Source: Rhizodiscina lignyota | Lineage: Eukaryota | Direction of reading: 5' to 3' | Assembly (NCBI GenBank): GCA_010015805.1 | Contig: ML978125.1 | Span: forward strand, 1,364,001 to 1,428,000 | DNA: 64,000 bases | In this document: positions 15,868-35,378 of the stretch, piece after piece | Layout of the letters: each line of letters starts with the position of its first letter | How positions within the stretch are numbered: position 1 is the first letter of the stretch | Notes under the pieces: model-generated | Databases searched by the model: none | Seen by the model: the letters and a program-made list of their open reading frames with translations, nothing else | Told to the model about the DNA's origin: nothing | Program-made: the position numbers and the translations under genes

Positions 15868-16934
15868 CTAACTTTCTGCATGCGTGATCCTTCCTACATA
15901 GACCAGGTTTGTCTGCTGAAATTGTTATGAGTTTCGTTCTCCCAGATAGCGGCATGTGAACGCTGCTTTTTCATGTGGGTTTCCCCACGCAAATTGTAAA
16001 TAAATATGACCATCTCCCGCGATGACCATGGGTAGATTCAGCTAAATGATTCGACGACCGCCTAATGCTTCTAAGTCAGTTAGACCATCTTTCACGCTTT
16101 TAAATATTCTGCAACTGTCAAATAACGTTCGGATGACTGTCTCTCAGGCAAAGCTACATTAGAAGTTGCCATTGACTTGCCAATATTCGTAGACAAGCCT
16201 CGAATAGGGCCTTCTAAACAAGATTCTAGGTCGAATATCCCCTTCATGCAAATACTTTTAGCCTTCATGGTACAATTGTTGATGTGGCCACACAGTGAGA
16301 GAGAGAGACCTTACCGGAAAACCACACGAACATTCCAGACCGGAAGAATGGTGGGGCATTAGAGCTATCTAAGAGCTAATGCCCATATGTGGCTCGGCCC
16401 GCAGCCCCACTAATAAGTAATTGATCCACAATCGCTTTCCGCTCTCTTGGGTTGTTTCGACACTCTACGACTTCAAATATACGAATATTTTCAGTATGGC
16501 AACAGAAAGAACAGACTTTGAGCATCTGACGAGATTTCGTGCCTGAGCCTTCTCGTCTGATGCGAATTATCCACTAGAATAGTGCCACGAAGCGGCCAGG
16601 CTGATGCGCGTTTGCTATGCAGGGCGTCCGCAACCATCAATTTTCTCTCATTACCTCTCATTCGACATTCGCAGACTCCAAGGCAAATTTGCCTTAAGAG
16701 TCTCGCTGTTTTCAGCCATGGAATACAACCGGTCAACGTATCTTGAATGTCGGTGAGCAGCACATTTCACTTGAGAGCCTCGTCCAGTTGCTTAATACAT
16801 GTCCAGGCTGGCTCAAGAGTCAAGGGGCATATTTTAAAGGGGTATAAGTATGGCGCTGGCCTTGTGCTGCCTGTATTCCTATTTTCATTTCCATGTCAAT
16901 ATTTTCGATGCTTCTTAACGTCCTGTGAGCAACT

Positions 16935-17950
16935 ATGACAGAGATCCAGCTTGAGAATGGAATCAAGGACAGGCTCGTGACGGGGTATCCTAAACTGGGA
17001 CAACGAATGGGCCTCAACCCTGAGCTAGCTATTTTCCGAAAATTTTCGTCTCTCGGCGCTCAAATAGTGCTATATACGCAATGCGAGCTCGTATACCTTG
17101 AGAAGCAGCTCCGGGAAGTTGAGCTGGCCAACAGCAAGAGCGATGATCCTGCTCGAAGTAGATATTCCGTAAATGCCAAGTTCTTCATGGTACCAAACGA
17201 AGAGGGCGATGAACAGAAGAGACTTATAGGAGAGATCATACCGAAACTTAAGGAATATTGTACGTTCAAGATGTCATATCATATTCTTCCCGTTCCACTG
17301 ATATGCCTTTGAAGGGGAGATACTCCGACTACAACAGGGAGTAGCAAACATGCCGGAACCATCAAAATACGAAGTCGACCATATTCAAAACTATATGGCA
17401 TCATACGATATGGGGCCATATGCAATGAGAGGCGAGGATGCCCACGTTTGGGGTTCGATTGAGCCACCCCGAGAACAAGCACCGGACTTGGTCGCGCTCC
17501 AAGGGCGTAGTAATGTTGACCCTTTTTCGAGATGGGTCACCGGAACTGGACTGGCCGTGTTTTTTGCATGTGGATTTCATCGCTTTCGTAGACCATCTGC
17601 GAATAGTGGCTTGGTTGGTTACAGCGAGGAAAAGCTGCTACGATTAACATATTGGATTACCACTATCGTTGCGTCTGTCTTACCGATCGTACCACTGATC
17701 ATCCTCAACATTGTTCAATCCCTACATTCACGCCTAGCAATTGTCGCAGCCTTTAATATTCTCCTGTCGCTGTGTTTGCTTGTATTCACGGAGGCGAAGA
17801 GGAGTGAGATATTCGCAGTGACAGCAGCGTCAGTTACCGTTGTTCTATGCTTTGAACTTTCCGCACGACACTCATGAAGCTAACATGGTGTTTCACAGAT
17901 TCACAGCAGTTCAAGCTGTCTTTGTTGGCACATCTGAAGCTCCCAGCTAG
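16935..17950 (+). CDS. DUF6594-family membrane protein (296 aa)
   Basis: GYPKLG...AIFRKFSSLGAQIVLYTQCELVYLE...LKEY; PDLVAL...DPFSRW; C-terminal TM helices ending EIFAVTAAFTAVQAVFVG; introns 17260-17314 and 17829-17898 give a continuous frame. Confidence 0.88.
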
Positions 17951-26437: not shown

Positions 26438-27583
26438 TCATATGTCGTTGTATCCCAGCAACTTCTTCTCCAGCTTCTTGTCCGCGATCGCCCACGTCCA
26501 AGCCCTCCCCGCCTCGCCAGTCCACAGGCCAGCTGGGTCGTCCGACTTCTCCATCATGCCGTCCTTCTCGAGCGACTTCATCTCGTGGCCGGTTGTGTAG
26601 CTCAAGAAATGCTCAAAGTCCCTGTCGTCGAGTGCCAGAGCGTTTCCTGAGATGCCGTGGCAGAGACATGGTTCCTTTGTGAGTAGTCCTCTCTCCACGA
26701 TACACTCCCTGCCTTTGCGAATTGCACGATCTATGCGATCCTTCAGCTTTGGGAAGTGTGGTTGGAGCGTCATGAGGGAGAGCACTACGCCTGGAGCGCC
26801 GTGGCACACCTGGACGAGCCTGTCTTTGCCTGGCGGTATTGCAGATGGCCAGTTGCCGCTATCGTACTGGTAGCTGAGCATGGCTGCCAGGTCTGCCTCA
26901 AGTTTCGGCGCCCACGTTGGGTCTGTGAGGATGATTTGTGTGATGATGCCAATACCCCCGTGAACGGAACCAACATATGCCTTGCCATGCCACTTCCACG
27001 GCCGTGGAGAGTCCATGATAGCCTCAATCACCTCGTCCGCCGTATCGTCGATGAGCTCCAAGATGTCCTCTCTGTCCGGGAAAGTTTGCCTGACCATTCG
27101 CAAAAGATAGAGGTAACCAGCGCGTCCGTAAAGCCATTCATCGCCTGCCTGCTCATCCGCAGTGACTGCAGCGTATCTGCACAGCTCGGCCGCCATATCG
27201 GGGTCTTTCGTAGAAGCAGCGTCGAGCGCCAGAATGCACATGATATCGTCGCTGACGCCGCACTTATCGAACGATGGGCCCGGATAGACCTTCATGTGCG
27301 CCTGTGCCTGCTTCAAGTACTCTGCGGACCAGTAACCTAGTGTTTGGCCCTCGATCTCAATCTCCGGGTAGAGAGGGTGAAGCACGAAGAGCAAGTACGC
27401 GACTGATATAGGGCCATAGTAGATTCCACCGCCGGGCAGCTGCGTCTTTGGCGGACTGTCATCAATTAATCTCTTCAAAGACGCGACGAGCTGTTTGTAC
27501 GGATCTCTTCTCTGTGGCTCCGCGTCGTTCTTGAAGTATCGTGGACGGGTTTGCTTCGCGGCCATTTCGGCCGCAGACGCCAT
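26438..27583 (-). CDS. LanC-like protein (LANC_like family)
   Basis: DEWLYGRAGYL, GSVHGGIGII, VQVCHGAPG and CLCHGISGNA motifs, including the Zn-ligand Cys/Cys/His pattern; single exon, 381 aa. Confidence 0.93.
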   Translation of the reverse strand: MASAAEMAAKQTRPRYFKNDAEPQRRDPYKQLVASLKRLIDDSPPKTQLPGGGIYYGPISVAYLLFVLHPLYPEIEIEGQTLGYWSAEYLKQAQAHMKVYPGPSFDKCGVSDDIMCILALDAASTKDPDMAAELCRYAAVTADEQAGDEWLYGRAGYLYLLRMVRQTFPDREDILELIDDTADEVIEAIMDSPRPWKWHGKAYVGSVHGGIGIITQIILTDPTWAPKLEADLAAMLSYQYDSGNWPSAIPPGKDRLVQVCHGAPGVVLSLMTLQPHFPKLKDRIDRAIRKGRECIVERGLLTKEPCLCHGISGNALALDDRDFEHFLSYTTGHEMKSLEKDGMMEKSDDPAGLWTGEAGRAWTWAIADKKLEKKLLGYNDI

Positions 27584-28076
27584 GGCTGGGGATGAGAGAT
27601 CTAGCCTTGCGGGAGAGAAAAAGCTGGTGTGTTCCGAGTCAGGTAAGGTTTTGTTACTTTATCAAACGCCGTCGGCTTTGACAACACACTCGTTGGGCCT
27701 CTTGTTGCTCTCGTGACCGGTGAAACAAAAGAGCGCCGTGCTGCGTTGTATCGAGGCTGAGTGACGTATGCGCGCAGGGAATGCGATTTGATGCCCGAGA
27801 CAATGGGATTTTGGCCTTTCCGATTCGGGTGAATGGCCGATTGTGCAAATTGATAGCAGGATCCTTGATTGATAGACGCTTTCAGAGCAAAATAGATGAT
27901 GAGGAAATTGAGAGGTGCTTGATGCGAAATTGTGAGGTTGCAGAATAGTGGGGCCAGGAGCGGAAGTGCTGGATATGTACTTTTGGAACAAGCAATAACG
28001 CAATCATCACCGTCTATACCTTTTCATGTATAGTTTCCTGCGAATTGACTGCTTATAACGATATCTAGAAGACATG

Positions 28077-31725: not shown

Positions 31726-32705
31726 GGCATTCCTTTGATCCCGTTAGGGATAGCATTTGGTGAACTTCGATGAAAACGGCCTAGCGCCTTCTGTTTCTGC
31801 TTAGCCGATAGGGCTTTTTTCTTCTCTTAAAAATGGTGTAGGATAGCTGACGGTGAAATACAAAAGTTATGACCACAATGCTCCCGGCTCATGCCATGTT
31901 CTAGTGCTGTGGCCATCTTATAAGATTGCTTGGTACCGTCCTCGCAGATGCAAATTAAACGCAATGGTCCGGCAGCAGCACAAGTTCATCCGATTGTACC
32001 GTGCAGAGCTACATTGCATCGACAAGTTGATGGGAACAGTCCGTTAAGTAAAGACGAATTGCATTCATTGAAGCCATATATTATTTTTCAATACAGTCTA
32101 GAACATACTCAACCAACCCTTCAGCCATTCTCTCCTCCATGCAGAAGAGCAAATCTTGACTACTCTACGCCACTTCGACATTCATCGGGGTTAGCTATCT
32201 CGGGGGCGAGGACGATGGTGGTTGAAGCTTTCAAGGCACAAGACAGCTATGAAGTGCAGTCTCTACGGCCAATAAAGCGTACAAGTTTGTCAGTGGTGTT
32301 GCCATTCTCGTATATACCCCAAAGAACGTAGCGTCGAGCCTCCATCCACAATCTGGGTTACATACTGGTGCAAGAGATGCTCACCCTTGGGCGTTACAGC
32401 TTCACAACGGCGACACTCAAGTCTACGCTGCTCTCGGTACTACATTGAACCTGCCAAGTGAGGCGACGTTGTGTCGAGCAGACTGCTGATCCAATCAACG
32501 GCACCGCTCGAATCCAAGACCGCACTTACGTGCCCATACATCTTAGTGGTAAGACTTGGAGAATACTTGTGATTCGATTCCTGAGTCCATATGTAATTAT
32601 GGTAAGCGTATATGGTATCCTACACCAGGTTACATATCCTGCTAAGTGATTAGGTAGCTACGTGCCAGTAACTGGGTACGTTGCCGTCGGTAATAACGGG
32701 TACGT

Positions 32706-32727
32706 GAGTACCTGAATTCAGGTACTC
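32706..32727. repeat. Perfect 22-bp palindrome GAGTACCTGAATTCAGGTACTC
   Basis: The sequence equals its own reverse complement. Confidence 0.9.
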
Positions 32728-33135
32728 CAGATACGACGGTAGGCCTGGATTCAACGCGTTATATCTGCATTAGTTATCGCTACCACTCTGTATATATGGC
32801 TGATGCTTAAGCCCGCGCTACGATTTAAGCGTCACTGTGTCTCAATATATACCGGTGATTTTAAAGCCCACCCTGTGATAAAGATTATATTGAAACTACG
32901 AAGCCCCGTGACACTTGGTTGAGCAGGCTTCTGGTCTAATTGCAGTGATCGCTGGACTTTGTTTGAATACAGGCACGCCCGTGCGCAATAGTGGTGAGAC
33001 TTAAAGAAAGGCTCCGATTAAACTAGGGCACGCCATGCACAATGGTGGTCAACCTGGGCTGGCAGCTCTCGTGTCATCTTCGATCCCCCGTCCTCGACGA
33101 CTCCACTCGGACTCTTCAACACCGCATACACCTGA

Positions 33136-33452
33136 TTAATAGTAGACGCAGACGATACCCCCATCCGGATGATTGATGCAATTCGGAGACAATTCAGTCG
33201 CATCGACTCGCTTGATAGCTGCGACTTCGTCTGCCGTGAAGGTGCAGAGCGTTCCGCGCTCCGTCTTCGCACAGTTTGGTCCGTCGCCAATTCGCTTGAA
33301 GAGAAGTGAGCGTTTCCAGTAATCCTCGTCCATCTGTTATTGTTCACTCTAACTCTGGCTCTTCCGATTTGAGTACCCACGGGAGTTGGAGCCGCCAGAC
33401 TGATAGCCATGGTCATGGCGATGGCGAAGGCGAGAAACATGGAAAGCTGCAT
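33136..33452 (-). CDS. Secreted Kex2-processed peptide precursor (89 aa), candidate RiPP/KEP precursor
   Basis: Exon 33452-33381 (MQLSMFLAFAIAMTMAISLAAPTP), 47-nt phase-0 intron GTGGGT...ACAG, exon 33333-33136 (MDEDYWKR SLLFKR IGDGPNCAKTERGTLCTFTADEVAAIKR VDATELSPNCINHPDGGIVCVYY). Confidence 0.75.
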
Positions 33453-33639
33453 ATTGAAAGTATTTGACTTGAGATATTCGTAGGCTTGAACTTTACGAGA
33501 AAGATGAATCTGGAATTCCTGAGATTTTCCGGGGATTGACAAGGCGGCATTCGACTAACTTGGGACCTGGAGAGACGAGAAGCTCAAGATTTGTACGTTG
33601 TAACTTACCATTGCATAATGTCCAATTTAGTCCAGCTGA

Positions 33640-34212
33640 GGGTTCGAAGACGCAGAGCAGTCCGGATATTTGGCTAGCCCGGAGATGCTCCATCAGCTAC
33701 ATTGTTTGGTGGGATTATTCGCGAGCCAAAATCTCTTCGTGGGACACACAAGTGTGCTGATGAGGCACTGCAGAACATGTTCCGCAAGTTCATCTATATC
33801 GAGTATTATGAAGAAAATGATCGCCACTGGGCGGAGAATCCTTCGTTGCAAGACCATGCTGGTGAGTGCCTGTGGATGGAGCCTCGTTTCTTGCTCTGCT
33901 GTTCAACGTTAATTCCTTCAGATCACTGCGTCGACATTCTGCGCCAGGTCCTGATGTGCAATAGCGATACTGGGTTGATAATGTACCACTGGTTCAAGGG
34001 TCGTCCTGCTCCTATGCCGGATTTCAGTACCGTGGTGAGTTTTTCGGAACGTTTGCCATAGTGCGTTTTCTAGGGGCCTGACAAGCGGCCCAGTACTCTA
34101 CTCGTGCCGGAATCCTGATGCAGTTTTAGAATGGGCGCTGGAGAATCAGGTCAGTATTACGAATCATATCAGAAGGAAAGGAGGTGAAGCGGAATTATCT
34201 GAGATATTCTAA
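33640..34212 (+). pseudogene. UstYa/DUF3328-family oxidase, apparently 5'-truncated and frameshifted
   Basis: GYLASPEMLHQLHCL|NMFRK...DHA|DHCVDILRQVLMCNSDTGL...PDFSTV|YSCRNPDAVLEWA, with both HxxHC motifs; introns 33709-33773, 33862-33921, 34035-34093. In-frame TGA at 33637, no TM anchor found upstream, and a TACTC duplication at 34094-34103. Confidence 0.8.
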
Positions 34213-35378
34213 ATGAATAAATCGGAATCGATCGTGCGGTCCGCATCTTGGAGCTTCTGTTCAATTTCAATAATCCTCCGAGGGCTGGCCCAAGAGTGCT
34301 CTCGGCGGAAAAGGGAGAACCGCCGAAGTGGAGAAAGGGCACACAGGTCGACTGAAATCCCAGTGAGAGAACCTTGGAAAGGGAGGAAGAGATCTGTGCT
34401 GGGATACAAGCTAGAATGGAGTCTTCTCATCTCGGATGAGCTGCATCTCCGAAGGACCGACGCATGTAAACACTAGTCAGCAGTTCAAGAGAAGAGTCTT
34501 TGCGAGTTATCTGCGACCAGCATCTCGACGGCCACATCGTGGCCTGATGCCCTTTTCAGGAACTGGTTGGACCTACGTCTTTCAGGTAAAGGGCTCCCGA
34601 ATCCTTCAGGAGATTCAGATAACATGAAACGGTACCTTTGGACGCACGTAGGCGTCTACCAGCGCCATGGGTATGGAGATATGCTCCAGGATTGAGCCTC
34701 AGTCAACACCGACTAACCCTCAAAAAGGTATGTCCAGCAGAGGAGTTGTTCGGGATGGGCCGCCAGGATCTGGATCGTTGGTGGAAGAGAGAGGATGCGT
34801 TCGTTAGGGGTCGCCTCAGTCGCCCAGGAATACCCCGCGTTCTCGGCTCCGATTTTCCCTTATCGCTGTTGTTACCTTGCTTTTTACATCATGCTCACTG
34901 TCGCTATCAAGCGCGCGCCCCGTTGAAAATCTCAATCCTCTGATACAGGGCCTGCTCAGATAGTTCTTTTCGGCATATACAAGCGACAGTATCGGCCAAT
35001 GCGATTTTTATGGCGCTGATAAGACGGACCTGGCGCAACGCCGTCATAAGACTGCGATTCGAAAACTCGAGGCTAATGGTGCGGGAGCGTGGCACTAGAA
35101 AGCTTGCTGCAGGCGAGGGAGCGCTTTGAGTGGCCAGCCGCCTGCGATATCTCGCCTGGGTGGATGCAGATGCCGTTTCCAGCTCCAATCGCCGTTGATC
35201 TTCATGGGACGACATCACTGCGAAATGGTGCAGCTGAGCGACCCGCCCTCTGGGCGCACTCCTTGAGTACTTATCACTTGCCATGCCCAACTGTAACAGT
35301 AAGAGTTGAGATTGTTAGCTGACCTTGTTGTCACTACTACACCCTTTTCACTGAGGAGGAGCCTGCCACTAAGCCGTC

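Follow-up and report, generated by a model that had tools for sequence, protein, structure and literature searches.

Analysis of a 64,000-nucleotide (nt) stretch of the Rhizodiscina lignyota genome (assembly GCA_010015805.1, contig ML978125.1, positions 1,364,001 to 1,428,000 of the forward strand; the whole of it is referred to as the window) identified a short, intron-containing gene on the minus strand at 33452-33136 that encodes a putative secreted peptide with four cysteines and lies head-to-head with a plus-strand sequence of the UstYa/DUF3328 oxidase family (PF11807). Overall, the evidence points to an unnamed peptide family whose members would be secreted, processed by Kex2 and built of two hairpins closed by disulfides, its gene being situated in this genome beside a dead UstYa gene, and we regard this explanation as the probable one, with appreciable room left for others. 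A first-pass annotation of this DNA had proposed that the two sequences form a minimal precursor-plus-oxidase system for a new peptide of the ribosomally synthesized, post-translationally modified class (RiPP). The oxidase was found to be without the front part of its domain, a membrane anchor or a credible start and to have a frame-shifted last exon, and the locus does not constitute a functional minimal RiPP system.

Structure of the peptide gene

The peptide gene begins with an ATG at 33452, and its first exon (33452-33381, 24 codons) is hydrophobic and has the character of a signal-peptide exon. A predicted intron of 47 nt (33380-33334, GTGGGT...TAACAG) separates it from exon 2 (33333-33136), which has 65 codons and a stop codon (33138-33136). 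Joining the two exons gave, by reading of the sequence, a product of 89 amino acids (aa). Exon 2 starts with a pro-segment that contains YW and ends with an invariant KR (codons 33297-33292, exon-2 residues 13-14), followed by a first loop bounded by Cys codons at 33273-33271 and 33246-33244, a linker with a KR specific to this genome (33213-33208), a second loop bounded by Cys codons at 33180-33178 and 33150-33148, and a C-terminal end of VYY. This reading agreed with the first-pass annotation, which had described, after removal of a 47-nt intron, an 89-aa protein in which three KR sites accompany two related Cys loops.

The choice of intron was examined by comparison of alternative joins. 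Only 2 of the 22 listed stop-free in-frame GT..AG joins kept the conserved YW..KR segment, namely, the 47-nt intron and a 56-nt variant using the identical donor. The unspliced minus-strand frame is 144 codons long and shares just its first 24 codons (exon 1) with the spliced product. In tblastn searches with the relatives described below, matches in the window were confined to the exon-2 frame and did not follow the unspliced frame. The mean Kyte-Doolittle hydropathy was 1.84 in residues 1 to 20 and −0.36 in the remainder of the product, and small residues were seen by eye at positions −3 and −1 preceding an AP. The number of KR sites was above chance: residues 21 to 89 contain four K and four R residues, and at least three KR sites were reached in only 35 of 100,000 shuffles of this segment. 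A word-based search with exon 2 among proteins of 35 to 114 aa detected none sharing words, which suggests that the peptide gene is apparently unannotated in the collection searched.

Relatives of the peptide

A phmmer search with the peptide against 1,835,955,588 representatives produced five matches at an E value of ≤0.001. Two of these, P0004 (97 aa, E = 8e-5) and P0006 (70 aa, E = 6e-4), were co-linear with the peptide in a single stretch spanning the whole exon. P0002, P0003 and P0005, which were long (438 to 1101 aa), internally repetitive, matched in 5 to 8 stretches each and without the Cys pattern, were dropped. In the same cluster as P0006 is P0008, a hypothetical protein from Bisporella sp. 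PMI_857 (KAH8592568.1) that is 103 aa long and has a signal-like hydrophobic N-terminus. Pairwise BLASTP comparisons of the peptide detected 43% identity with P0008 (E = 7e-13) and 40% identity with P0004 (E = 9e-14). The members P0004, P0006, P0007, P0008 and P0009, all except P0008 being Logan/JGI proteins, exhibited 40% to 47% identity to the peptide and shared with it the length class and a putative signal peptide. A profile search gained P0009 alone, a near-copy of P0008.

The five-row alignment of the family (A2) contained 19 invariant columns. These comprised the YW, the KR ending the pro-segment, the four cysteines, the Gly of each loop, E-V-x-A of the linker and V-C-x-Y of a GIVCxY tail. 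The YW..KR segment, the fixed Cys spacing and the GIVCxY end were present both in P0004 and in the P0006/P0008/P0009 group. Co-linear homology of this kind, with conservation of the Cys, YW, KR and C-terminal positions in two other lineages, argues that the peptide gene is real, its expression and splicing being predicted. A KR directly after the YW and the KR of the inter-loop linker were present only in this genome, and the relatives have H-G-D and F-G-D there. The two KR-separated cores of the first-pass annotation were thus found in R. lignyota but not in either related lineage, where the inter-loop KR is absent.

Two further differences among the relatives were observed. P0009 differs from P0008 by one N-terminal residue and by 16 residues inserted immediately behind the signal peptide; this insertion may represent a 48-nt intron retained in one gene call at a position analogous to that of the intron in the window. 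The pro-region of P0004 and P0007 contains an exact tandem copy of a 13-residue acidic YW..KR unit with KR and RR sites upstream, so that in P0004 it looks like a small Kex2-processed repeat array preceding the four-Cys domain.

Searches for a named family or further members were negative. Pfam searches of five family members gave sub-threshold matches only (DUF7443, E = 0.11, in one of the five; a Rubivirus domain, E = 0.014, in two of the five), and a PDB profile search with the family returned only noise (E = 0.57). The ESM Atlas contained no usable match to exon 2, while P0008 gave scores of 0.79 and 0.77, under the lead level. Two scans of metagenome contigs for relatives yielded 52 and 83 pattern matches, none of which was confirmed. 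The family is therefore unnamed and very sparse, being represented by two other lineages in the libraries searched.

Loop modules and predicted processing

The two PNC..C loops are related to each other. An hhalign comparison of the two halves, with rows for the window, P0004 and P0008 (three of the five rows of A2, the near-duplicates P0007 and P0009 being left out), gave a probability of 84% and a P value of 7.7e-6 over 15 columns. Each module has the pattern N/G-C, 8 to 9 residues with a central Gly, C, any residue and an aromatic residue. The structure was modelled with AlphaFold2 using the five-row alignment, and the resulting model was of low confidence (mean predicted local distance difference test score, 49.3; predicted template modelling score, 0.28), too weak for a fold search. 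In this model each Cys pair is placed on its own strand-turn-strand element (strands 21-24 and 27-32 for the first and 52-55 and 59-64 for the second), with a helix at 34-40 between them. The arrangement agrees with the repeat logic and suggests, rather than proves, two independent disulfide-closed hairpins.

As the KR is invariant solely at the end of the pro-segment, the product common to the family would be one peptide of ∼50 to 60 residues that carries both loops and follows a kexin-cleaved pro-segment. On its sequence features, the family thus resembles mini-proteins that fold into two hairpins and carry a pro-peptide, and not multi-core dikaritin precursors. The proposed course of maturation is that the signal peptide would bring the pre-pro-peptide into the endoplasmic reticulum (ER), where each of the two homologous modules would be closed as a beta-hairpin by its own disulfide. 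Kexin in the Golgi would then cut after the invariant KR ending the YW pro-segment, and a mature peptide of ∼51 residues would be secreted. Two extra KR sites appear to have arisen in this genome, and cleavage at the one in the linker could leave two peptides with one loop each, 26 residues (once the KR is removed) and 23 residues long. The UstYa sequence would have no part in modifying the peptide at this locus. The peptide probably acts as an extracellular signal or as a defence or competition peptide; it is acidic and hence would not be a classical cationic antimicrobial.

The plus-strand UstYa sequence

The spacer between the two sequences (33453-33639) contained no coding signal and no Pfam match. 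About 197 nt separate the ATG of the peptide gene from the start of UstYa-like codons (about 33649), close to the ∼190 nt given previously for the divergent DUF3328 coding region. The first UstYa-like piece (33640-33708) contains the HQLHC motif (33691-33705) and corresponds to positions 118-137 of the 220-position PF11807 profile (E = 5e-4), although its match at 33643-33708 scored 20.3 bits and was under the cut-off of 25 bits. An intron of 65 nt (33709-33773, GTGGGA...CTGCAG) joins profile position 137 to 138/139, and the exon that follows (33774-33861) covers profile positions of about 138-165. A second intron (33862-33921, 60 nt, GTGAGT...CTTCAG) is in frame and stop-free, so that the open reading frame (ORF) track reads through it; its removal creates the second motif, HADHC. 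The next exon (33922-34034), which carries this motif, reaches profile position 204 and is followed by a third intron (34035-34093, 59 nt, GTGAGT...GCCCAG) and by the last exon (34094-34212). The three GT..AG introns join the UstYa pieces in profile order, and 28 residues separate HQLHC from HADHC in the spliced sequence. The main PF11807 match (33777-34058; 53 to 53.9 bits; E values of 5.6e-14 and 2.9e-14; profile positions 138/139-204) was well above the cut-off.

The closest UstYa relative found was the ENA protein P0001 (39% identity), with which tblastn gave an E value of 4e-19 over 33777-34040. The gene call for P0001 itself reads through introns and begins just past the first HxxHC motif, from which it follows that public protein sets contain mis-called UstYa fragments.

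Searches for the remainder of the gene failed to detect profile positions 1-117. No match to this part was present in 26 plus-strand pieces of 32253-33720, in 83 pieces of at least 30 aa on both strands of 31730-35370, or in 134 ORFs of at least 90 aa from 14 to 52 kb (85 of the 219 ORFs in the window lie outside this last span). UstYa was detected in 1 of the 26 and 2 of the 83 pieces, each time as the back half only. The frame of HQLHC is closed upstream by a stop codon at 33637-33639, and its sole in-frame ATG is at 33685. Upstream splicing was explored by building 37 donor-acceptor combinations, of which the 14 with a G at donor position +5 were inspected. Two of these 14 gave an upstream ATG (33409 and 33618), and neither added a membrane helix or UstYa-like sequence.

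The 3' end was also disrupted. Joining the strong donor at 34035 to the acceptor at 34093, the canonical join, led to a stop after 11 codons, whereas the open frame, which runs as far as the stop codon at 34210-34212, starts at 34096 and is offset from this join. Only weak donors, such as GTACCG at 34027, would preserve the last frame. A 5-nt direct tandem repeat is located at 34094-34103, at the start of the last exon, the point at which the frame is lost. The offset frame has no Pfam match by itself, and its length and Cys/Trp content suggest that it represents the ancestral tail of UstYa. At best, conceptual translation gives a product of 86 aa that contains both HxxHC motifs but no signal, targeting sequence or membrane helix. 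Over 32900-34400, the window was identical to a 28,403-nt Logan contig from run X1 (word depth of 153.5), and identity at this depth indicates that the lesions are not low-coverage errors, with the qualification that X1 may be the source data of the window itself.

These results bear on the earlier description of an oxidase with both HQLHC and HADHC. Both motifs were present, HADHC only after removal of the 60-nt intron, but in the back half of a gene. The PF11807 assignment stood, while a complete domain with an N-terminal transmembrane helix was not found and an intact frame through the C-terminal Cys tail was contradicted by the early stop.

Published work on the DUF3328 oxidase CctR (PMC12435403) describes a protein with a transmembrane helix at its N-terminus, a domain in the lumen, C-terminal disulfides and a dimeric, disulfide-linked state, in which HxxHC(x)nHxxHC forms a binuclear copper site; the two HxxHC motifs are called class-defining for DUF3328 (PMC12048977, PMC12435403). 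Like CctR and the other characterised DUF3328 copper oxidases, the sequence in the window keeps the HxxHC(x)nHxxHC motif, but, unlike CctR, it is without the N-terminal parts and has its Cys-containing tail out of frame. As the work of DUF3328 enzymes needs the transmembrane helix, the lumenal domain and the dimer, an 86-aa cytosolic fragment could not do this job in vivo. On the evidence of the sequence, we regard the plus-strand UstYa/DUF3328 sequence as a pseudogene relic, the copper-site half of a gene and not a working oxidase. Its motifs and splice sites have remained clean, so the relic would be a recent one.

Genomic neighbourhood

The peptide gene and the UstYa relic are the only genes or gene remnants in an island of 3.6 kb (31730-35370) between the genes for an RRM protein and a permease. 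Other ORFs of the island, for example, 31924-32328 on the plus strand and 34910-35314 on the minus strand (135 codons each), were without a Pfam match. The neighbours are housekeeping genes encoding Rax2, a LanC-like protein, OGG1, the RRM protein, the amino-acid permease and a TLC-domain protein. Among the 134 ORFs of 14 to 52 kb, there was no second UstYa, tyrosinase, methyltransferase or transporter cluster. Transposon or repeat-induced point mutation traces were sought as an explanation for the UstYa truncation, and neither repeats of note nor any departure from a flat GC content (0.44 to 0.55) was detected.

Two of the more distant genes were recorded. The LanC-like gene (PF05147, E = 2.4e-29; 26441-27658, minus strand) is ∼6 kb from the Cys-peptide gene, with the OGG1 and RRM-protein genes between them; it probably encodes an ordinary eukaryotic protein unrelated to the peptide but belongs to a family of thiol-adding enzymes and lies close to a gene for a Cys peptide. 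A DUF6594 (PF20237) gene on the plus strand is split between overlapping frames (profile positions 1-93 in 16929-17309 and 87-236 in 17302-17874), which may reflect an intron or a frame shift.

Comparison with known fungal peptide systems

The locus shares several features with dikaritin clusters. A survey of 9399 DUF3328 genes from 1461 fungal strains reported that 31.8% were within 15 genes of a gene for a Kex2-processed repeat protein (KEP), with a peak at the adjacent position (PMC7329392). Dikaritin precursors have been defined by a signal peptide and tandem repeats, perfect or imperfect (at least one, of no fewer than 10 residues), that are separated by kexin sites, in proximity to a DUF3328 gene (PMC9632046). 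The peptide formally agrees with the precursor part of this definition, while neither related lineage has the KR that separates the repeats. A functional DUF3328 gene was not found, the sole PF11807 sequence among the ORFs of 14 to 52 kb being the relic. In common with ustiloxin, phomopsin, asperipin-2a and victorin, there is a putative signal peptide, KR sites and two imperfect repeats encoded head-to-head with a PF11807 sequence. In contrast to these systems, the oxidase has been truncated and has a shifted frame, neither a tyrosinase nor a methyltransferase is encoded nearby, and the several near-identical short cores of dikaritins are replaced by two diverged Cys loops of 15 to 19 residues in a conserved 50-residue domain, with a KR between the loops that is not conserved among relatives of the peptide.

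Similarities to KEPs were also apparent, as the peptide would be a small secreted precursor with KR sites and P0004 has its tandem KR-ended unit of 13 residues. Unlike KEPs, the peptide in the window has one YW..KR unit, broken by a KR of its own, and the bulk of the conserved sequence is the four-Cys domain; the word "cysteine" has no occurrence in the main text of PMC7329392. The nearest parallel for the cysteines was acalitide, the sole two-disulfide fungal RiPP that we found in print. It derives from an 81-aa precursor, its two disulfides being attributed to presumed action of an ER protein disulfide isomerase independently of DUF3328, and it is cyclised head-to-tail by a dedicated peptidase, AcaB (PMC10840396). 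According to the same paper, few characterised fungal RiPPs are disulfide bridged. Both systems have a small fungal precursor and a peptide with two disulfides, predicted in our case. The peptides are set apart by description, as acalitide has cysteines at positions 5, 9, 22 and 26 (three-residue loops), whereas the loops here have 8 to 9 residues and no peptidase gene is adjacent. A search of the literature for DUF3328 in combination with cysteine or core peptide did not find a Cys-loop substrate of a DUF3328 enzyme.

Evaluation of alternative explanations

The major competing explanation is that the locus is a decayed or trans-served RiPP cluster in which a UstYa-type copper oxidase acts on the peptide family and the local oxidase copy has died. 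The peptide would then be unmodified at present or be modified by a UstYa paralogue elsewhere in the genome, and the modified part could be the aromatic residue after each loop or the acidic YW..KR unit. The divergent adjacency at about 200 nt, the enrichment of DUF3328 genes beside Kex2-processed precursors (PMC7329392), the KR enrichment in the peptide, the fit of two imperfect KR-separated repeats to the dikaritin definition (PMC9632046) and the exact duplication of the YW..KR unit in P0004 are all consistent with such a history, and the retention of both HxxHC motifs and three clean GT..AG introns would place the decay in the recent past. This explanation is countered by the truncation and frame shift of the oxidase, by the missing inter-loop KR in both relatives, by the nature of the conserved part, a 50-residue four-Cys domain typical of folded secreted mini-proteins and not of short Tyr-type cores, and by the lack of other tailoring genes nearby. 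We judged it to be unlikely, albeit a serious contender. A bolder form of the idea is that the locus is a recently decayed copy of an undescribed UstYa-dependent class of fungal RiPPs, with a KR-delimited acidic YW unit and two disulfide hairpins ending in aromatics, and that intact pairs in other Pezizomycotina make cross-linked, disulfide-stapled peptides; this must be viewed as speculative and unlikely.

Other explanations fared worse. If the spliced peptide ORF were a chance frame and not a gene, the absence of a Pfam, PDB or Atlas relative and of any word-sharing protein of 35 to 114 aa would follow, but significant co-linear homologues would not be expected in two other lineages with conserved Cys, YW, KR and C-terminal positions, nor would a correctly placed putative signal-peptide exon or tblastn matches confined within the window to the exon-2 frame, and we consider a chance frame very improbable. 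The truncated plus-strand gene might alternatively still produce an enzyme working on the neighbouring peptide, with translation beginning at the ATG at 33685 or in an upstream exon that escaped recognition. Its HxxHC motifs and splice sites are intact, and N-terminally truncated DUF3328 enzymes are mentioned as being active in vitro after refolding (PMC12435403). The 86-aa product, having neither a signal nor a membrane helix, could not, however, reach the secretory lumen, where the substrate and disulfide-dependent dimerisation would be located; 117 of the 220 profile positions are absent, the tail is out of frame, and the upstream ATGs at 33409 and 33618, from the 14 of 37 combinations inspected, add nothing that is UstYa-like and no membrane helix. 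This explanation is already close to refuted.

Several observations weigh against our preferred explanation of a family of two-hairpin secreted peptides beside a dead UstYa gene. A KR-bearing secreted peptide encoded head-to-head with UstYa resembles the dikaritin clusters and, as adjacency of DUF3328 genes and KEPs is reported to be enriched (PMC7329392), coincidence is not the obvious default. The exact tandem duplication in P0004 is a precursor-like trait. The N-terminal part of UstYa is poorly conserved, and short diverged exons could escape Pfam; use of the weak donor at 34027 could maintain the relic's last frame. Furthermore, the conservation statistics are thin, coming from just two other lineages, the expression and splicing of the peptide gene are predictions, and a model of low confidence and the repeat logic are the basis of the predicted disulfide pairing. 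Secretion, kexin cleavage and the biological role are likewise proposed from the features of the peptide. What the sequence itself shows is the spliced ORF in a conserved frame, the homology, the conserved arrangement of Cys, KR and YW, the internal repeat and the truncated state of UstYa, and we continue to favour the two-hairpin family.

Implications

The alternatives would carry different consequences. A decayed cluster would provide a new precursor architecture for DUF3328 copper oxidases, and an undescribed UstYa-dependent RiPP class would involve chemistry not yet reported for DUF3328 enzymes. If the preferred explanation of a two-hairpin peptide family beside a dead UstYa gene is true, a UstYa match with both HxxHC motifs beside a KR-rich secreted peptide is insufficient to call a RiPP cluster, and mining pipelines keyed on PF11807 and HxxHC would count this relic. 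For R. lignyota, the same explanation would add an apparently unannotated intron-containing gene, and this gene would belong to a new and very sparsely distributed ascomycete family of secreted two-hairpin peptides.

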